Source: a virus
Reading direction: 5' to 3' (one strand)
Virus record (IMG/VR): IMGVR_UViG_3300035698_020241
Span: 32,001-96,000 of that record
DNA length: 64,000 nucleotides
The notes below the pieces were generated by a model. The model made no database searches. It had not been told where the DNA came from and saw only the letters and a program-made list of their open reading frames with translations. The number at the start of each line of letters is the position of its first letter. Positions within the stretch are counted from its first letter, which is position 1. Shown in pieces: positions 2,408 to 40,331 of this stretch. A program made the translations under genes and the position numbers.

Positions 2408-3580
2408 CTACCCCCATAATACCTTAGGAATTACAAGTTTTTTTAATATTTCTTTTTGTTCTGTGCTCCATTTAGGTATAAGATTAAGAACATATTCAAC
2501 TTCTTGTTCAACGGTTCTTGTAGGTTTATAACCTAAATCAGTAAGATTTTTAGTTATATACTTATAGTAATGGTCTCCGGTATGCTCATTACGAGGTGTT
2601 GTTATGTTTACTCGTTCAACATTCTTTATACCACATTTATCTGCTGTTTTAATTACCATATTTGCTACATCATTCATTGAAAACCACTCTGATAACTGAT
2701 TCCATACTTGTGGTCTACATTTCTTTGCTGGATTCTTTACAGCCAACATCATAGCCTGTACTGAATCATTCAATGATAAAAATCCTCTTTTATGATCTCC
2801 ATCTCCATATATTGTTAACGGTACACCAAGTAAGGCTTGAATTATAAATCTATTTAACACTGTACCAAAACATTCATCTGAATTAAAATCTGAATAGATT
2901 TTTGATTTATCTATAACATCTGTATATAATCCAAATACTATTGATTGTTGAGGATCTGTACATCTTAAACCCCATGATCTTGAACAAAAATCTATAAGAT
3001 ATGTTGATCCTGTTTTACTTGAATGATATATGGATCCAGGTTTTCGTGGAAATATCTGTTCTGTGGATTGTCTACCCTTATGTTCAAATTTAAAATATCC
3101 TTCTTCAATATCTATATTTGATTGATGATCATATTCACCAGTAGTTCCTATGGTTATATAATGAATTTCAGGATCATTATTCTTTATAGCCCATAATAAG
3201 TTATTGGTTCCCATAGTATTATTTTGTAGGGTAATTTCGGCGTGTCTCCGATCTATCATAGAATATGGACCAGAGTTGATGTGTGCTAAGTTAATAATCG
3301 TAGATGGTTTCCATTTTTGGATTATTATGTTCAAATGAGAAAAATCCTCTGCAATATCTATTCTTTCAAAGATATATTTCCCCATTTTTTTATACTTCTT
3401 TGTTTTTTCTAATTGTGTTAAAGTTGGACCTGCAGGAAATGAATTCATCTCCTTTATCAAGTCAATCTTCATAAGATTATCAAGTCCGATAACCGTATAA
3501 CCCTCACTCAAAAGGGTTTGTGTAAGGGCATTTCCTATGTAACCATTACAACCACACAATACAATTGTTTTTTCATTCAT
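2408..3580 (-). CDS. sqdB: UDP-sulfoquinovose synthase homologue (SqdB/SQD1/Agl3 family SDR)
   Basis: GCNGYIG Rossmann motif, PYSMIDR, GTTGEY, NIDIEEG, YHSSK (YxxxK with His), FGTVLNRF and PLTIYGDG match the SQD1/SqdB pattern. Confidence 0.85.
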   Translation of the reverse strand: MNEKTIVLCGCNGYIGNALTQTLLSEGYTVIGLDNLMKIDLIKEMNSFPAGPTLTQLEKTKKYKKMGKYIFERIDIAEDFSHLNIIIQKWKPSTIINLAHINSGPYSMIDRRHAEITLQNNTMGTNNLLWAIKNNDPEIHYITIGTTGEYDHQSNIDIEEGYFKFEHKGRQSTEQIFPRKPGSIYHSSKTGSTYLIDFCSRSWGLRCTDPQQSIVFGLYTDVIDKSKIYSDFNSDECFGTVLNRFIIQALLGVPLTIYGDGDHKRGFLSLNDSVQAMMLAVKNPAKKCRPQVWNQLSEWFSMNDVANMVIKTADKCGIKNVERVNITTPRNEHTGDHYYKYITKNLTDLGYKPTRTVEQEVEYVLNLIPKWSTEQKEILKKLVIPKVLWG

Positions 3581-8734: not shown

Positions 8735-9109
8735 TTATACTTTACTTGAAAATTCTTTTTGGATAAAATCCAAAAATTTCTTATCAATAAAATCACGTTT
8801 ATACATTTCTCTTATAATATACCAGACAGACTTTTTCATATCATTATAGCAATCATCTTTAAAATCAGCTCGCCATAAATATTTCATAGAATTACCAAGA
8901 TTAAAACCCATATGCTCTACAACATCTATACATTCTACTGGTATATGATTATAATGTGATGGGTGATTTGACCTTTCAGGTCCTATATCTTCACTACCTC
9001 TCAGTATACCATCAGCATCAAGTCCCATTGCTATATCACATATATGATTCTCGAACTTTTCACACAATTTTCCACAATGCGTACATGTCCATTTAGTATC
9101 TTTTTGCAT
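8735..9109 (-). CDS. DUF3310-family protein
   Basis: NHPSHYN...ECIDV...FNLGNSMKYLWRA. Confidence 0.8.
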   Translation of the reverse strand: MQKDTKWTCTHCGKLCEKFENHICDIAMGLDADGILRGSEDIGPERSNHPSHYNHIPVECIDVVEHMGFNLGNSMKYLWRADFKDDCYNDMKKSVWYIIREMYKRDFIDKKFLDFIQKEFSSKV

Positions 9110-11985
9110 TATATTAACTCACATCCTCCTGCAGAACATGCCAACTCTGTGGCTCCTATAGTATAGTCGGAACTTTCGTATATATTCAAATCTTCAAAGT
9201 TTATCTTACGAGGAAAATCTTTTACCAGTTCTTTATATTTTTCTTCATCAATCTCCTCATAAGGAGGTAACTGATAAATTCCTGTATCATATGGTAAAAA
9301 ACTAATACCTGATACTATATCCCAATTCTTGTATACCCAAGCACCAACTTCAAGCCATTCATCATCCCTTACATAACAAGTAATACTTGGTTTATGCTCA
9401 CACCACGCAGTTTGCATTATTCTCCAATGCTCAAGTTGTGCTATTGCAGTTTTATCATTTCTGAATATTGCTCGTTTTGTGGGTGATTTAATTGGAAAGT
9501 CAAAGACAACTGTTGAACATTCATCAACTGTTCCTTGTTCCAATTCAGGGGTATGATTTACTCCTTTGTCTATTAAAAATTTACATATTGGATCTGTTCT
9601 TGAAACTCTTACTCTCCTGATATAATACATTGAATATCGTGGATGAATACCAGAAGATGTGTTAACTAACTGAGATACCGTACCACTTGGTTTGATAGCT
9701 GTAATGGCTGTAGGCATATTAATTCCTAAATTTTTACTCCACTTTTCTGCTACTTTTATAGCAGTGGTTCTCATAGACTCCAACCAATCAGATACTTTCT
9801 CAGATTTATTCTCATTACTCAATACTGGGTGATCCATTATACCTGTAAGTGATACACCAAGTAATCGTTCCTCATCACAATTCACCTTCCAACTTTTATC
9901 AAGAAATTTGAAATCTGTAAGTGTGGATTGTAATACACCAAGTATAGTTGCAAACTTAACTTTTTCAGTTAGATCATTCAGTTTATCACTATATCTAACT
10001 ACTACTTCTGAAAGGTTACAGAACTGGTTTGGTCTTAGAATAATTTCACTACATGGATTTGTACCGAAATCCCAATTTGCATCCCTTCTACCATTTATTG
10101 CTGCTATTCTCTTGGCACCTTCTCTATTGAAAATACCTCTTTCACCTGTACCTGACTTAATAAGTCTTCCCCATTCTTCCATGAATATTGGTATTTCAGG
10201 TCTTTCAGTATAAGCCACAGAATTGTTTGATAACTGTCTGTAAGGCGTTGACATCCAAAATTGTCCCTCTTTAGCCTTCATCATTCTTTGATCTGATAAA
10301 TTTGAAAGACTGATAGATGCGCTCCTTCTTACACCACCTACAACTACAATACTCGCAATATAACAAGCTAAATCATGAACCTCAAGTGAATTGAGTTTCC
10401 TGCCTTTAGCATTATGAAATGTTTGTATTGTAAATTCAATTAATCTTTTCAATGGACCAGGACCCGATGCCCTGCCACCAAATGTTTTCAGTATGGAACC
10501 TTTAGGTCTTATAAGGGTAAAATCAGTGTCAATTTCCTTACCTATGTATAATCCCTCTATGAATTGGCGATAGCCCTCTGCCCAACCAAACTTTGAATCT
10601 TCAAATATTATTACTTCATCACATCTGTTTATCATTGCTGGTATTTCTGGCAGTTTATTAATATGTTGTCTCTCTACTGAAAAACCTACACCACAACCGT
10701 TCATCATGATATACATGATCTCGGAGAGTGCTTTTACTCTATCTATTATTGTATAGGCACAATTTCCTGTTACGATACCATTAGGCATTACAAATGATTT
10801 ATCATCTTCCACTTCAAGACACCATACATCTGATTTAAAAGTATTACCTATATTTTTGACCTTCCAAGCAGTTCTACCATAATTATGCTTATTTTCATCA
10901 AAACCTAACTGATACGATGATATGAAATACCTATATGCTTTATTACTATATTTACCAAGATTTGTTTCTTGATTAACATCACCTTTTGATGTTATATAAA
11001 CACCGGCAATAGGAAAACACTTTTCAATAAAATCTTGTGCTTCTTTAGATACCTGTACTATATTTCTATAACGGGAAATCTTTATATTATCATCATCTTT
11101 TCTTTTGAGATTTGTGTTTTTACCACCATCTCCGTCTAAAAATCCTCTAATAAAAGCCCTTAATAATCTTGGATCATCCACTGAAGGATCTGGTAAGGTT
11201 TTTAAATATTTACCAGTATATACCATAAAATCTCCATCAAGTGAATTACTTGAAGATGTTTTAAATCCTAATTCTTCAAATCTATGTTTATATCTTATAT
11301 CATCTCCACACAATCTTATCATTGATCGTCTTGGTGATCCATCATCATTCTTTGTTACTGTTCCGTCTGCATATACAAGACCGTAAGCCCAATATACCCT
11401 CTCATCTGTAGGGGCTCCATCATACACAAAATCTTCAAACATATTAGGTTGTCCTAATAATGTATGTCCTTCTTTTAATTCGGTAGTTTCACTACCATCC
11501 TTTAATAACCATCTATGGTCCTTTGTTGTATTAACAACAAAAGGTTTTGAATTTCCTTTTTTAAATGTTACAGGATAAAGAAAATCTTTACCATAATTTC
11601 TTACTTTTGCTTTTTTCCAATTACCTTTATGTGTTAATACTACTGTAAAATCACCATCTTTAAAATCTTTAAATGATTTTACACCACATTTTGTAACAAA
11701 CTCTGTTTCTCGTCCAAAGCAGTTGTACCCTGCTATGTTATCATTCTCAAGTGCTGGGCCTGCACTCCACAATGCCCTCATTGAAGGCATTATTTTCTTT
11801 TCAAGAACAAATTCCTTTGCTTTGTCAAAAGCCCTTTGTAAGTTAGTGGGAACCCTATCTCCAAAAAAATCAAAATACCGATCAACAGTCTCTTCCCATG
11901 TTTCTCTTCTCTGCTGATCCCATATCCATCTACTGTAAGTTCTTTTATAAATGAACTCACTGTAAAAACTACTAATGTCCCTCAT
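9109..11985 (-). CDS. nrdJ: Class II (B12-dependent, monomeric RTPR-type) ribonucleotide reductase containing an intein
   Basis: YKRTYSR, MPSMRALW, GCGVGFS, GTNPCSEI, TAIKPSGTVSQL and a C-terminal CxxGxC. Confidence 0.93.
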   Translation of the reverse strand: MRDISSFYSEFIYKRTYSRWIWDQQRRETWEETVDRYFDFFGDRVPTNLQRAFDKAKEFVLEKKIMPSMRALWSAGPALENDNIAGYNCFGRETEFVTKCGVKSFKDFKDGDFTVVLTHKGNWKKAKVRNYGKDFLYPVTFKKGNSKPFVVNTTKDHRWLLKDGSETTELKEGHTLLGQPNMFEDFVYDGAPTDERVYWAYGLVYADGTVTKNDDGSPRRSMIRLCGDDIRYKHRFEELGFKTSSSNSLDGDFMVYTGKYLKTLPDPSVDDPRLLRAFIRGFLDGDGGKNTNLKRKDDDNIKISRYRNIVQVSKEAQDFIEKCFPIAGVYITSKGDVNQETNLGKYSNKAYRYFISSYQLGFDENKHNYGRTAWKVKNIGNTFKSDVWCLEVEDDKSFVMPNGIVTGNCAYTIIDRVKALSEIMYIMMNGCGVGFSVERQHINKLPEIPAMINRCDEVIIFEDSKFGWAEGYRQFIEGLYIGKEIDTDFTLIRPKGSILKTFGGRASGPGPLKRLIEFTIQTFHNAKGRKLNSLEVHDLACYIASIVVVGGVRRSASISLSNLSDQRMMKAKEGQFWMSTPYRQLSNNSVAYTERPEIPIFMEEWGRLIKSGTGERGIFNREGAKRIAAINGRRDANWDFGTNPCSEIILRPNQFCNLSEVVVRYSDKLNDLTEKVKFATILGVLQSTLTDFKFLDKSWKVNCDEERLLGVSLTGIMDHPVLSNENKSEKVSDWLESMRTTAIKVAEKWSKNLGINMPTAITAIKPSGTVSQLVNTSSGIHPRYSMYYIRRVRVSRTDPICKFLIDKGVNHTPELEQGTVDECSTVVFDFPIKSPTKRAIFRNDKTAIAQLEHWRIMQTAWCEHKPSITCYVRDDEWLEVGAWVYKNWDIVSGISFLPYDTGIYQLPPYEEIDEEKYKELVKDFPRKINFEDLNIYESSDYTIGATELACSAGGCELI
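10762..11721 (-). mobile_element. 320-aa intein with LAGLIDADG endonuclease in nrdJ
   Basis: AGYN|CFGRETE...IVTGN|CAY junctions; LAGLIDADG-like YGLVYADG and FIRGFLDGDG; VWCLEV block F. Confidence 0.9.
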
Positions 11986-31447: not shown

Positions 31448-32401
31448 TTACAATGCTTCTTGTAACATTTTTACTATCCACTTGGCATGGTTATACACAT
31501 ATTGGGTTTCTTTTTTGTCAAGACTTTCCATATATCCGCTATTGTCTTTAAGAAAATCTTTTTTAGCGTCTTTAAGCATATATTTTATATATTCTCCCAG
31601 TTGCTTATTTTCTTTCATCTCACCATATTTAGAGAATATTCCCTGTATCCGCATTGGTGTGAGATATGATCTAAATTCATCATGTAGGTCAAGGAGTTCC
31701 TGAGATATAGGGTCTTTTTGACTCTTAACTCTTTTCTTTCTTTTCATTTTTTCTATGAATTTTTCATTCTTTTTCTTCAAATATACTGTATGTCCGCCAG
31801 AATTTATGTAATATTCATAGTAAGGTTTAATAACCACACCTTCCATTATATTATCACCTTCTGCAATAGGATATATACAACTTTTAAGAACCACATCATA
31901 CTCTATAGCTTTTCTTAATCCCGTTACCATATCAACCGTAGGACATAACAGGTATAACAGTCCTCTATCTCCAAAGAAACATTCCATTCCTTTATCAGAA
32001 AGCATATGTTTATCCAGTCTCATGTTAAAAAATAATAAATGTTTTTTATCCCCATAATCAACACCCTTGTTTATACCAGGACCTATAAACTCTCCATAAA
32101 GGTTTACAAGAGAATCACTTTTATCAGAATATTTCTGCATATGCAGCATGAGTTCCTGCATATGAATATCATTATACAGGAAGTCACGAATTCCAAAGAA
32201 ACTTTCACCTATAGGTATAACACGATTCCTAGAACCTACTTCCATAGGTTTATTTGGTTCGAATATCAACTGTATATTTGTTCCATGAAGTTTTTCCTTC
32301 AGTATGAACAAAGTATCCTTTAATTCAGGAAACTCTGAAAGGAACTGATCCACAGTTTTACTTTGATAATGGTTGTCTATTTCTGGAAATTTTATAAACA
32401 T
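31448..32401 (-). CDS. RNA ligase 2 (T4 Rnl2-like)
   Basis: KEKLHGTN (KxHGxN), GEFIG, MEGVVIKP and KKKNEKF. Confidence 0.88.
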   Translation of the reverse strand: MFIKFPEIDNHYQSKTVDQFLSEFPELKDTLFILKEKLHGTNIQLIFEPNKPMEVGSRNRVIPIGESFFGIRDFLYNDIHMQELMLHMQKYSDKSDSLVNLYGEFIGPGINKGVDYGDKKHLLFFNMRLDKHMLSDKGMECFFGDRGLLYLLCPTVDMVTGLRKAIEYDVVLKSCIYPIAEGDNIMEGVVIKPYYEYYINSGGHTVYLKKKNEKFIEKMKRKKRVKSQKDPISQELLDLHDEFRSYLTPMRIQGIFSKYGEMKENKQLGEYIKYMLKDAKKDFLKDNSGYMESLDKKETQYVYNHAKWIVKMLQEAL

Positions 32402-32497: not shown

Positions 32498-32586
32498 ATA
32501 TTTTCATTATACTTATATTATATCATTGTTTGATTGTGTTGTAAACTAATTCTTTGAAAGATTTTTTTGGTAAGTGTATTTCTATT

Positions 32587-32699: not shown

Positions 32700-33065
32700 T
32701 CATGAGTCCATCATAAAATTCCATCCATCCTTTCCTTTTACCCTTTTCTTATATTCATCCCATGATATTATCTTTTCTGTTGACCATTCATTCTCTGCAT
32801 CTCTATGAAATTTATCACAATATACATCATAATGTTCAACGATTTCATCATATGTCGGAGGTCTTTTCGAATTTATAACACCTACAGAAGAAGGTTCACA
32901 GGAAAATGTACCGGAATTAATAAAATTACTTTTGTGGTTGTAACTTGCTCCTCTTTTTCTTCCGCGATCAAAAACACTCTTAGCCTTTTTAACATAGGCC
33001 TTAACATAAAACTTTAAAGCTTTATAACTCAATACACCTATTTCACATAAGTCTTTTATTAACAT
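32700..33065 (-). CDS. Hypothetical protein
   Basis: Probable start MLIKDL just after the tRNA. Confidence 0.55.
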   Translation of the reverse strand: MLIKDLCEIGVLSYKALKFYVKAYVKKAKSVFDRGRKRGASYNHKSNFINSGTFSCEPSSVGVINSKRPPTYDEIVEHYDVYCDKFHRDAENEWSTEKIISWDEYKKRVKGKDGWNFMMDS

Positions 33066-33081
33066 ATTATTCCTTTCTATT

Positions 33082-33161
33082 TGGTACCCCCGGAGGGAGT
33101 CGAACCCATCAAAATACACGGCGTCTAAGGCCGCAGCATATACCAGTTCTGCTACAGGGGC
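33082..33161 (-). tRNA. tRNA-Leu(TAG)
   Basis: Cloverleaf with CCA. Confidence 0.88.
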
Positions 33162-33181
33162 TTGATTTTACTATTTATGTT

Positions 33182-33264
33182 TGGTACCCCTGGGGGGACT
33201 CGAACCCCCACGTCCGAAAACACAGGGTTTAAACCTGACGACTATACCATTCGCCTACAGGGGT
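33182..33264 (-). tRNA. tRNA-Leu(TAA)
   Basis: Cloverleaf, long variable arm, CCA. Confidence 0.88.
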
Positions 33265-33341
33265 TTAATTTTATAAAATGATGTTTGGAGAAACCGTTAC
33301 TATATGTTACGGTCTCTCCAAGCGCAATTTTGTTTTAAAAT

Positions 33342-33884
33342 GAGAAAGGCTGCTTCCACACTCTTTTTCAGTCCACCCTATCTTCTTTTTTAAAGGACGG
33401 ACCTTTTAGTTCCACAGCCCACTCGGTTTCTTCGTGCGCAAATGCTTCGTCCGGAACAAAACAAATTCACACTCTTTTTCTTTTAACCCAATCTAATTTA
33501 CTACTAATCTATTAATTATACTTCATCTATTATTGGCAAATTGTTATTTAGTTATAGGCTTTGCCTACGCCTTACTACCTTTCTTATGTAATGACAATCT
33601 ATTTGTACTTGTCATTGCTATTAGTATACCTATATACACTAACCTTTTTCATCTTCGCGCCGGTAACAGCACTTTAACCGTCCAGAATGTTGGACCCAAA
33701 GTCTCTTGTCATTTCTGACCGTCGGTTCCTCAATAACCGGAATCTCCATTCCATTAACCTACACGGAGTTATTATCTATGGTTCCCTTTTATTAAAGTCT
33801 CTGATAACTGTGATTACCAGATGCTTTTAATGTGTGAGGGGAGTTGGCCGTTACAGAAATACTTTCAGTAGCGTGCTCCTCCTC
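33342..33884 (-). ncRNA. Candidate large (~545 nt) structured ncRNA (ROOL/GOLLD-like context, family unassigned)
   Basis: No credible ORF; ends pair (GAGGAGG-GC with GCCTTTCTC); at least 9 internal hairpins with G-U pairs; followed by a strong hairpin at ~33286-33321. Confidence 0.6.
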
Positions 33885-33892
33885 CGTTTATT

Positions 33893-34528
33893 TTATTTGT
33901 TTAAAAACTTTAATCTTCTTCCTTTAAGCCATCCTTTAATTTCATACTTAGGAAATTCTTCCTTTTTAATTTTCTTACATAATTTTCTTTTGAAATTATA
34001 AATCCACATAGTACCATACTGACTGTTTCCCTCTCCAGATTGGTGTTTACTATTTTTTTCACCGATTATTCTTTTCGTTTCATCTGTATGTTTTTTTCCT
34101 CTAAATGTATTACCACATATCTCTCTAAATCTTTTATCATATTCAGGATCATTTTCTCTTTTATTCTTTATTATCTTATTAGTTTTAATAACACCTTTCT
34201 TACCACCTTTTGAACGATGCTCAAAGGTCAATACATTATAATTGGTATGATCCCATCCACCATAACCACCTTCTTTGATATTATAAGTGTCTTTTCTTCT
34301 AATAAACTCTTTATTAACTATTTGACTTTCCATTTTAAACATATCTTCTGAATTATCAAATATTTCAATATATTCTTTCTCAAAGTTTTCTATTCCATAC
34401 TTTTTTATAGCATTTCGTAAGATATCACTAGAACCCATATAATTATCATCTAATTTAGATGTCTTATGAACTCCTATATAAATCTTACTATTGGTCAAAT
34501 TTTTAATTTTATAAACCGTATATAACAT
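33893..34528 (-). CDS. GIY-YIG homing endonuclease
   Basis: YTVYKIKN...IYIGVH, YMGSS, TYNI.EGG and NUMOD3 FRGKKHT. Confidence 0.9.
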   Translation of the reverse strand: MLYTVYKIKNLTNSKIYIGVHKTSKLDDNYMGSSDILRNAIKKYGIENFEKEYIEIFDNSEDMFKMESQIVNKEFIRRKDTYNIKEGGYGGWDHTNYNVLTFEHRSKGGKKGVIKTNKIIKNKRENDPEYDKRFREICGNTFRGKKHTDETKRIIGEKNSKHQSGEGNSQYGTMWIYNFKRKLCKKIKKEEFPKYEIKGWLKGRRLKFLNK

Positions 34529-34550
34529 TCCTCTATCCTTCTATTTAAAA

Positions 34551-34950
34551 GTGGAGGACGGCGGGAATCGAACCCGCGTCTTGAATAAAATCATACATAA
34601 TTCATACGCCTATTTCCGTCAACGTACTTTGAAGAAAAGGACGGATACCGTTCTACAAAGTTGTGATATTGTTTGTTTAAGTCAGTCGGTCAATATCCAA
34701 GCCAAACTTTCCGATCCTACTAATTTATGCCTCACTAAGATGTAGGATGCCCTTTAGTGAAACATGCAACTATATAGCTGCAAATGCGGGAGTTGGAACA
34801 AGTGACTTGAAGAAGTCGCTTATCTTAGTTACCGCGTTTTTTATAAATGTTTTAGCATTTATCGTTTTGTAGTCATTTTAAGGTAGCCTACTACATTCTA
34901 CCAGACGCAATTACATACTCATACTACCCAATCGAAACCTTTTCGCCCCC
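34551..34950 (-). ncRNA. ssrA: tmRNA; tag AKTFIKNAVTKISDFFKSLVPTPAFAAI (34856-34770)
   Basis: 5' GGGGGCGAAAAGGTTTCGA; 3' GACGCGGGTTCGATTCCCGCC..TCCA; ATAAAT-GCT resume context. Confidence 0.92.
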
Positions 34951-35099
34951 ATTGATTGTTTTAGGATCAACAGCCCATGAACAGCCCTGACAAACTTCCC
35001 TTGGGATTTCAACATCTACAATGATGTCTCTTGCCAGAACAAAACCCATACACTCCTTGATCTCTGTTTTACATATTATACATTTTCTTTTCATAATTA

Positions 35100-35182
35100 T
35101 GGCGGAGGATAGATGAATTGAACACCCATGTTTCACCATGCCACCGGGTTCAAACCGGATTTGTCCCTTGACGGTACCCTCC
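35100..35182 (-). tRNA. tRNA-Ser(TGA)
   Basis: TT-TGA-AC loop, long variable arm, GCCA end. Confidence 0.8.
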
Positions 35183-35194
35183 ATGTTCTTTATA

Positions 35195-35283
35195 TGGTGA
35201 GGGATGATGGAATTGAACCACTCGTCGCCCTCCGAGATTTTTTATGACCACGACTTTACAGGCCGTTACCCGGAACATCCCCC
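35195..35283 (-). tRNA. tRNA-Tyr(GTA)-like with near-absent D-arm and enlarged variable arm
   Basis: GGGGGAT/ATCCCTC acceptor, CT-GTA-AA loop, TTCAATT T-loop, ACCA end. Confidence 0.6.
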
Positions 35284-35343
35284 ATATATTTCTTTTATCT
35301 ATATAATTCTAACACATTTTATCACTTGTGTCAAGATTATAAT

Positions 35344-39470: not shown

Positions 39471-40331
39471 TTATTTTACGAATTTTTTTATAAAATCTAT
39501 ACATGTGTTTTTGTTATTCATCCAGTCATTTTCTTTTATCACTAACAGGTCAATATTTTTTTCTTTACATTGGACAACCTTCTGATGGTCTCTGTATTTT
39601 GTTTCAATATCATTGTGCCAATATTCGCCGTTAAACTCAATGGCTTTATTAATGGAAGGTATGAAAATGTCTAATTCTAAATTCCATCCTGTTTTAGGAT
39701 TTATAATTTGCGTTCTATCATTCTCCACAATATATTCAGGTGTTAATAATTTAACAACTTCTAATACTTCCTTCTCTGTTTTAGAAGTTGATGCTTCTTT
39801 CCAACATTCTGGACATCTGCTACCTTGTTGAAAATTATTCCATACCATTTCAAACTCATGGCCTTTAGGACACTTCATTCTCAATTTAACATGAGCATTT
39901 TTATACTCCTTACTCAAAAGTTTATAACCCTCTTTTTCTATATTCTTTCTTACATATTCATTTCTTATACATTTAGAACATCTTCGTCCTTGTTTGAAAT
40001 GACTCCATATCATTTCAAATTTATGACCTTTAGGACATTGAAATTCCAATTTAGTTTTACTATTTTTATATGTTTTACTTAAAAGTTTATAATCTTCTTG
40101 CTCTATTTGATCTTTTACATATGAATAAGACAATCTTTGTTTTTCTATACTACATATAGAACATCTATCACCTTGTTTCAAATGACTCCAATTCATTTCA
40201 AATCTATGACCTTTAGGACACATTAGTTTTAATTTAACATGAGCATTTTTATACTCCTTACTCAAAAGTTTATAACCTTCAACATTCTCAATTTGTTCCT
40301 TTACATAATCATATGTTAATTTCTTAGGCAT
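39471..40331 (-). CDS. Putative homing endonuclease: three CPKGH zinc-ribbon repeats plus PD-(D/E)XK-type domain
   Basis: Three LLSK.YKN...L..CPKGH.FEM.W....G.RC..C repeats; ELDIFIP...AIEFNG.YWH. Confidence 0.8.
   Translation of the reverse strand: MPKKLTYDYVKEQIENVEGYKLLSKEYKNAHVKLKLMCPKGHRFEMNWSHLKQGDRCSICSIEKQRLSYSYVKDQIEQEDYKLLSKTYKNSKTKLEFQCPKGHKFEMIWSHFKQGRRCSKCIRNEYVRKNIEKEGYKLLSKEYKNAHVKLRMKCPKGHEFEMVWNNFQQGSRCPECWKEASTSKTEKEVLEVVKLLTPEYIVENDRTQIINPKTGWNLELDIFIPSINKAIEFNGEYWHNDIETKYRDHQKVVQCKEKNIDLLVIKENDWMNNKNTCIDFIKKFVK

Follow-up and report, generated by a model that had tools for sequence, protein, structure and literature searches.

Genomic context of the locus

The window analyzed here is a 64,000-nt stretch (positions 32,001 to 96,000) of IMG/VR record IMGVR_UViG_3300035698_020241, a 126-kb virus contig that is estimated to be about half complete and has a G+C content of 31.7%. 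The phage record contains 25 tRNA genes, a tmRNA gene, and genes for the RNA ligases Rnl2 and RtcB, phosphoesterases, an NAD ligase, and a ribonucleotide reductase; its source is an uncultured, jumbo-phage-type genome from a salt lake. The stretch of interest, flagged in a preliminary description as positions 33286-33884, is on the minus strand and, as that description claimed, lies within a run of minus-strand tRNA genes and the tmRNA gene. Its neighbors in the window are a 211-aa ORF and tRNA-Leu(UAA). Eight metagenome runs from salt lakes contain DNA that is nearly identical to the stretch, and one marine run contains a relative.

The tmRNA gene is located at 34549-34950 (minus strand; Rfam RF00023, 108.6 bits) and the tRNA-Leu(UAA) gene at 33182-33264 (minus strand), and both are complete. 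In the homologous Logan contig L004, described below, the tmRNA occupies 2625-3024, the new RNA begins at 3025, and tRNA-Leu(UAA) starts at 3462, one base past the end of the RNA alignment, such that the RNA abuts both neighbors with no spacer. The tmRNA is directly upstream of the RNA in the genomes that lack the endonuclease gene found in the window. The tmRNA tags are unusually long in both phages (window 34549-34950, minus strand; L004:2625-3021), with ARAGORN assigning the L004 tag 27 residues and a C-terminal AVAA.

The endonuclease gene is a free-standing homing endonuclease gene of the GIY-YIG type (33893-34528, minus strand; phrog_314, E 8.5e-40) that sits between the tmRNA and the RNA, outside the latter; the GIY-YIG/SegE Pfam matches to this ORF are weak. 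The gene is absent from L004 and from the marine relative. A 445-nt marine contig carries positions 33716-33796 of the RNA with three substitutions and a 2-nt deletion, then 129 other letters, and then the 3' part of the tmRNA, thereby linking 33796 to 34557 with just those 129 letters, and therefore that genome is also without the endonuclease gene. The first ∼50 nt of the flagged stretch (33835-33884, minus strand) are best regarded as the flank of the endonuclease insertion. This flank contains a local hairpin, GAGGAGGAG...CTCCCCTC, is paired locally in the minimum free energy (MFE) fold, and has no counterpart in L004. The ∼50-70 nt past the endonuclease gene (33835-33900, minus strand) give a weak, low-identity alignment to the 3' ends of both tmRNAs. 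Tentatively, the flank may be what remains of a tmRNA 3' end that was displaced; such a duplicate, now decaying, would fit insertion of the endonuclease cassette at the 3' end of the tmRNA.

Judged by consensus match only, a sigma-70-like promoter stands at the head of the operon (35306-35334, minus strand; TTGACA-17-TAGAAT with a TG, score 11/12), a promoter-like site at 2179-2207 precedes tRNA-Tyr in L004, and the next strong site in both genomes precedes tRNA-Asp (32517-32545; L004 4005-4033). No strong sigma-70-like site adjoins the RNA in either genome.

Between promoter and tmRNA, L004:2286-2478 holds tRNA-Tyr(GTA) and tRNA-Ser(TGA), both detectable by ARAGORN. The aligned part of the window (34951-35305, minus strand) keeps the T-arm and acceptor ends, and neither tRNA is called there by ARAGORN. 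A small Cys4 ORF with two CxxC pairs (window 34927-35094, minus strand, 56 aa; L004:2484-2642, plus strand, 52 aa) is found between the tRNA-Ser-like gene and the tmRNA, its final codons overlapping the tmRNA 5' end. The indels that separate its two versions are multiples of three; it matches no Pfam family and is uncalled as a gene on the Logan contig. A possible role for its product is that of a zinc ribbon that binds RNA, with the tmRNA or the new RNA as its target. Elsewhere in the window, the ribonucleotide reductase ORF (9109-11985, minus strand, 958 aa) includes an endonuclease-like segment (residues ∼271-353) before the reductase match, and an intein or a fused homing endonuclease is therefore possible.

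Coding potential and folding energy

The longest ORF in the flagged stretch is 61 aa, and all three sense frames contain many stops, both under the standard code and when any one stop codon is reassigned. Across the genome, coding is complete with the standard code. The stretch is thus free of long frames, as had been proposed from inspection.

The proposal that the stretch is densely paired was evaluated against 100 dinucleotide shuffles. The 599 nt as flagged have an MFE of -164 kcal/mol (z -5.4), and none of the 100 shuffles folded as well. The sense strand of the conserved part (33337-33834) gave a z of -3.6, as compared to -1.05 for the opposite strand, and the L004 homologue was weakly better than its shuffles (z -1.65). 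Dense pairing is therefore borne out on the sense strand only. Since the complementary strand is not better than shuffles, G-U pairs appear to be at work in an RNA that is read in the direction of the tRNAs.

Homologues and sequence conservation

A search with the neighboring Rnl2 led to the 8.6-kb Logan contig L004, which is syntenic with the window gene for gene and encodes proteins 42-78% identical. The homologue of the RNA is L004:3025-3461 (437 nt, nhmmer E 5e-20), which spans exactly the interval from the last base of the tmRNA to the first base of tRNA-Leu(UAA). Contigs from the marine run supply a partial third copy; the comparative set consists of two full copies and this partial one, all three from saline waters.

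Conservation is patchy. The ∼120-nt core of the RNA is 80% identical between the window and L004, as compared to 74% for the tmRNA and 70-79% for four neighboring tRNAs. Invariant blocks of 13-26 nt (16-26 nt in the core) alternate with indel-rich segments and replaced hairpins; the blocks are TCCGGTTAT.GAGGAACCGACGGTCA, GGGTCCA.CAT..TGG.CGGTTAAA, TATAGATGAAGTAT, AAACCGAGT, and the CTCATTTT tail. This pattern is typical of structured RNAs. The conserved RNA extends over about 33337-33830 (minus strand), which is ∼495 nt here and ∼437 nt in L004. The extent first assigned, 33286-33884 with ∼545 nt, thus does contain the RNA, but both of its ends are specific to this genome when compared with L004.

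The RNA found no match in a similarity search of a phage GenBank collection. Pattern scans of IMG/VR, JGI metagenomes, and GTDB with a repeated motif and four conserved blocks picked up nothing but a gene for a tandem-repeat protein and chance matches in high-GC sequence. Of the contigs reached with three neighboring proteins as queries, only L004 was syntenic and usable; those from other relatives (P0062/L040, P0063, P0065) are 1.0-1.6 kb long, and L040 holds no RNA. A covariance model built from the 5' hairpin and core (R1) found a single copy in its own whole record and none in the L002 record or in 50 jumbo-phage records that also encode the phosphoesterase; the only other hits were two AT-rich hairpin artefacts. 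A profile search with the longest antisense ORF, used as bait for mis-called genes on short contigs, gave low-complexity and repeat-protein noise only. From IMG/VR, Rnl2 recovered a single relative, in the phage L002 (35% identity). The region past its tmRNA was considered as a homologue of the RNA and rejected, as it is coding with TGA as sense: the genes at L002:15150-17500 have many in-frame TGA codons that are read as sense, in contrast to the standard code of the window genome.

Architecture and covariation

RNAalifold and a shared-helix search, run on the pair of full copies, yielded four helices (hairpin H1, hairpin A, the base of hairpin S5, and the long-range helix of the 3' domain) that were matched position by position. 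Over 35 pair positions, 17 pairs are unchanged, 7 have a one-sided change, 8 have a double change, 3 are gained (mismatched here, paired in L004), and none is lost; these counts are an optimistic upper bound because both sequences had already been seen when the helices were chosen. When the 3' partner was slid by one to three columns as a control, 2-8 of 18-25 changed positions were still paired in both sequences. Many of the kept pairs are G-U, which is workable on this RNA strand alone. The absence of disruptions and the reliance on G-U pairs are hard to reconcile with neutrally drifting DNA.

The conserved RNA begins with hairpin H1 (33794-33827, minus strand), which has 13 pairs here and 14 in L004 and is placed equally in both genomes, 7-8 nt before GGAACC. 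Its stem, TCTGGTAA/TTATCAGA, has four double and two one-sided changes that keep pairing, and two mismatches here are pairs in L004. The near-invariant core domain follows (33672-33790, minus strand). It consists of block B1 (GGAACCA.AGA.AATAAC), hairpin A (33738-33753, minus strand), block B2 (33717-33742, minus strand; TCCGGTTAT.GAGGAACCGACGGTCA), a GTCA/TGAC hairpin, a GTCCA/TGGAC hairpin, and block B3, which runs to CGGTTAAA. Hairpin A keeps its pairing through one double and one one-sided change, and in the marine variant the 2-nt deletion, whichever way the gap is placed, results in a 5-bp stem capped by a GAGA loop. B3 in the marine overhang has one additional change, and the position concerned has a different letter in each of the three copies. 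AACCG, CGGTT, and TCCGG are each present more than once, so that several pairings among their copies are mutually exclusive and no single fold of the core is picked out.

A perfect 15-nt complement of the core hairpin GTCCA-ACATTC-TGGAC occurs at 39800-39814 (minus strand), within an HNH/zinc-ribbon homing endonuclease gene. The complement codes for CPECW there; with ∼0.03 such matches expected by chance, it is probably still a coincidence.

Downstream of the core is a variable hairpin region (33535-33671, minus strand) that is poorly alignable; the MFE folds place four hairpins here and three different ones in L004, and the marine contigs skip 33542-33653 and 33566-33647. Next is the invariant block B4 (33518-33532, minus strand; TAATAGATGAAGTAT), for which folding suggests two possible long-range partners, the B2 loop (TTATTG/TAATAG, one double change) and the 3' tail (AGATGA/TCATTT). 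The 5' and 3' halves are joined by an A/U-rich, C-poor linker with TAGA/TTAGA repeats (33473-33517, minus strand). It is predicted to be largely unpaired, and in L004 it is longer and tandemly repeated.

Hairpin S5 (33434-33472, minus strand) has a variable stem and the conserved palindrome TCCGGA (33450-33455) at its tip. Its base, GTGTG/CGCAC as compared to GTGTA/TATGC in L004, keeps all pairs through three one-sided changes and one double change. TCCGGA stands at the tip in both genomes on stems of different sequence, and in L004 it lies within a 10-nt apical loop. In the 3' domain (33337-33430, minus strand), block B5 (AAACCGAGT.G.C.GTGGA) pairs with block B6 (GAAGC.G.CTT.CTC), and the domain ends in the conserved CTCATTTT tail. 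The long-range B5/B6 helix, GAGTGGGCTGT with GCAGCCTTTCTC, has 11 aligned positions, of which 7 are unchanged, 2 have double changes, 1 has a one-sided change, and 1 is gained; the 10-bp expansion hairpin inside this helix (33370-33403) is no more than a stub in L004. GGAAC/GGAGC in the 3' loop has possible partners in GTTCC/CTCC of S5 or TTCC/CTCC of B2, and the same double change fits both; a pseudoknot would result in either case. Between the RNA and tRNA-Leu lies a 13-bp hairpin (33287-33319, minus strand) that is specific to this genome and was uncalled in a terminator scan. It has no U-tract and is therefore not a canonical terminator.

The stems listed in the preliminary description are all present in the sequence, and the comparison with L004 separates them. 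TCTGGTAA/TTATCAGA (H1) and GTTCC/GGAAC are kept with compensatory change, and CGGTT/AACCG and GTCA-GAAA-TGAC are invariant or compatible. GTCCA/TGGAC is present but acquires one U-U mismatch in L004, whereas CTCCGT/ATGGAG, TTAGTGTAT/GTATACTAA, AATGACAA/TTGTCATT, and GTCCGTCCT/AGGGTGGAC exist here but are genome-specific. The stem proposed to close the molecule, 5' GAGGAGG.GC with 3' GCCTTTCTC, is unsupported: L004 has no counterpart of its 5' strand, and its 3' strand forms a helix with GAGTGGGCTGT that shows two compensatory changes. The motifs GAAAAAGAGTGTG and AGAGACTTT are indeed duplicated here but are unconserved in L004, and scanning the collection for one of them turned up nothing other than an unrelated tandem repeat. 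Likewise, the strong hairpin said to follow the RNA is real but is missing from L004.

Comparison with known RNA families

All 4227 families of Rfam 15 were searched with cmscan using permissive filters and E ≤ 10. Neither positions 33330-33840 of the window (511 nt) nor L004 3022-3465 (444 nt) matched ROOL, GOLLD, OLE, RNase P, an intron, a riboswitch, tRNA, or tmRNA at this threshold, and the wider stretch 33000-35100 gave no match to ROOL (RF03087) or GOLLD (RF01998). The RNA would therefore represent a separate, rare family and not a divergent ROOL or GOLLD, which was one of two readings offered at the outset. The other, a new class, is supported by homology, synteny, and base-pair covariation in four helices, at a comparative depth limited to two full copies.

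Several candidate identities were tried and rejected. A group I or group II intron has no model match, and the flanking tmRNA and tRNA-Leu are complete. A tRNA-bodied RNA with a grafted domain is not found by ARAGORN or the Rfam tRNA and tmRNA models (33286-33884; L004 3025-3461), and the two ends do not pair with each other. A tRNA-like core, with the D-loop-like GTAGGTTAATGG and a 5-bp hairpin with a 7-nt loop, is missed by both ARAGORN and Infernal, and its arms misfit. A match to rli61 is sub-threshold (30 bits against a cutoff of 50) and covers the genome-specific terminal hairpin alone. For docking to the tmRNA or tRNAs, complementarity is at most 8-9 nt with none conserved, and whole-molecule duplex energies are no better than those of shuffles.

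Discussion

The comparative sequence data confirm the original observation of a real, conserved, structured RNA gene, which belongs to a new and apparently rare family. Our preferred reading, which we hold to be fairly probable, is that the stretch is the gene of a structured noncoding RNA that is cut from a tRNA/tmRNA operon transcript and acts in trans as a folded scaffold. A single polycistronic precursor would contain, after the promoter, tRNA-Tyr, tRNA-Ser, the small Cys4 ORF, the tmRNA, the new RNA, tRNA-Leu(UAA), and tRNA-Leu(UAG), with the homing endonuclease gene lying in the operon between the tmRNA and the new RNA in this genome. Having no promoter of its own, the RNA would be released by the enzymes that mature its neighbors; its 5' end would be set by maturation of the tmRNA 3' end and its 3' end by RNase P cleavage at the 5' end of tRNA-Leu. 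The RNA is modular, with a 5' hairpin, a ∼120-nt multi-helix core, replaceable hairpins, an A/U-rich linker predicted to be unstructured, and a 3' domain closed by the long-range helix beside the hairpin with the self-complementary UCCGGA tip. Such a scaffold could self-associate through loop-loop contacts, as in ROOL, GOLLD, and OLE, or it could bind a protein from the phage's set for translation and RNA repair (Rnl2, RtcB, phosphoesterases, the tmRNA, and 25 tRNAs); both options are conjecture. The size, the invariant blocks, the replaceable hairpins, the floppy linker, and the self-complementary loop resemble ROOL and GOLLD and, together with the precedent of T4 described below, are the reasons why a trans-acting scaffold, tied to translation and RNA repair in the phage, is favored.

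A further-reaching possibility, to which we assign a small chance, is that self-assembling phage RNAs include a third, independent class, represented by this RNA, or that its core is a new ribozyme. In the first case, the invariant core and the UCCGGA tip would form a multimer of RNA alone that has the variable A/U-rich linker in its interior. The RNA would be produced from one transcript in a constant ratio to the tmRNA and tRNAs and would act on the translation apparatus during infection. The conserved palindromic UCCGGA at a hairpin tip is the sole hint that such a homo-oligomeric, RNA-only cage may form.

The main rival to the trans-acting scaffold is a cis-acting processing or regulatory spacer that guides, times, or protects the precursor of the tmRNA and tRNA-Leu and is then discarded, with no function in trans. 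This is unlikely. In its favor, the RNA touches both neighbors without a spacer in L004, has neither promoter nor terminator of its own, and has its invariant CTCATTTT tail adjoining the RNase P site. However, an element of ∼440 nt whose internal blocks are invariant and whose hairpin-tip motif is conserved far from the junctions goes well beyond what known tRNA leaders need. In addition, a 636-nt endonuclease gene here parts the RNA from the tmRNA, and an extra ∼85-nt hairpin parts it from tRNA-Leu, yet the core sequence is unchanged.

Conservation could also reflect an element that is functional only as DNA or not functional at all, such as a homing-endonuclease target, an origin or iteron region, or a slowly diverging spacer. 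A homing endonuclease does adjoin, such genes settle beside conserved sequence, and L004 has iteron-like tandem TAGAAATTAGAAGC repeats. We nonetheless regard this explanation as quite improbable, given that the compensatory and G-U pair conservation is strand-specific and senseless for duplex DNA, that folding is asymmetric between the strands, and that the conserved blocks surpass the flanking tRNAs in conservation.

That the RNA is catalytic, for example a tRNA-processing ribozyme, RNase P-like but strongly diverged or of another kind, is suggested by its location in a tRNA operon and by GAGGAA-CCG, TAGATGAAGTA, and GAAACCGAG, which we take to be short resemblances to conserved regions of RNase P. 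This is very unlikely, as no RNase P (bacterial A/B, archaeal, nuclear, type T), intron, or small-ribozyme model matches at E ≤ 10, the look-alike blocks stand in a different order, and the 3' strand pairs internally with B5. P1/P2-type end pairing is lacking because the L004 RNA starts with a hairpin right after the tmRNA. A divergent member of ROOL or GOLLD would share the size class, phage origin, and tRNA-island setting (PMC12286853), but the failure of both homologues to match either model under relaxed filters makes this highly improbable. A protein-coding role, through small peptides or an alternative genetic code, is scarcely credible: a 12-codon frame (ATG/GTG to TAA) follows GAGG in the core of both genomes and the distant L002 reads TGA as sense, but four of the seven differences in the mini-frame fall at second codon positions, long frames are closed under any stop reassignment in a genome that uses the standard code, and the longest antisense ORF recovers nothing beyond noise.

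For the trans-acting scaffold, the closest comparison is with ROOL and GOLLD, phage RNAs found near tRNA islands that assemble via kissing loops, contain a variable, disordered linker, and are of unknown function (PMC12286853). The new RNA has the same setting, being on a virus contig with 25 tRNAs and a tmRNA and located between the tmRNA and tRNA-Leu. Like ROOL and GOLLD, it is phage-encoded, adjacent to a tRNA island, and several hundred nucleotides long; it has many hairpins with conserved junctions, a variable and apparently disordered internal linker, and a conserved hairpin-loop sequence that might form loop-loop contacts. It differs in matching neither covariance model, in being shorter than GOLLD, and in being placed between the tmRNA and tRNA-Leu with no promoter of its own, in three copies that all come from saline waters.

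RNAC and RNAD of phage T4 are located in the T4 tRNA gene cluster, are released by the tRNA-processing machinery, and are simple RNAs of ∼120-140 nt. The new RNA is likewise a non-tRNA RNA among phage tRNA genes, and its promoter positions and abutment to its neighbors suggest release by processing; unlike RNAC and RNAD, it is three to four times larger and has a multi-domain fold. The function of the T4 RNAs is also still unknown (PMC9697503). With bacterial RNase P RNA the new RNA shares a size class (300-450 nt), an association with tRNA maturation, and a few short motifs of similar appearance, but it has no covariance-model match, a different order of blocks, and no pairing between its 5' and 3' ends.

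The value of the finding is limited by the very few copies and the uncultured host. Within these bounds, the RNA is a compact test case, as its invariant core, replaceable hairpins, and conserved palindromic loop are separately mutable. It appears to be physically fused into a tmRNA/tRNA transcript, if co-transcription holds, within a gene set for RNA repair and translation rescue. Big, intricately folded RNAs of unknown function are rare, and the few that are known (ROOL, GOLLD, and OLE) proved to form unexpected RNA-only assemblies. Two of these three share the phage tRNA-island habit with the new RNA, and a further, unrelated family in such islands strengthens the idea that phages have repeatedly evolved big structured RNAs tied to their tRNA sets.
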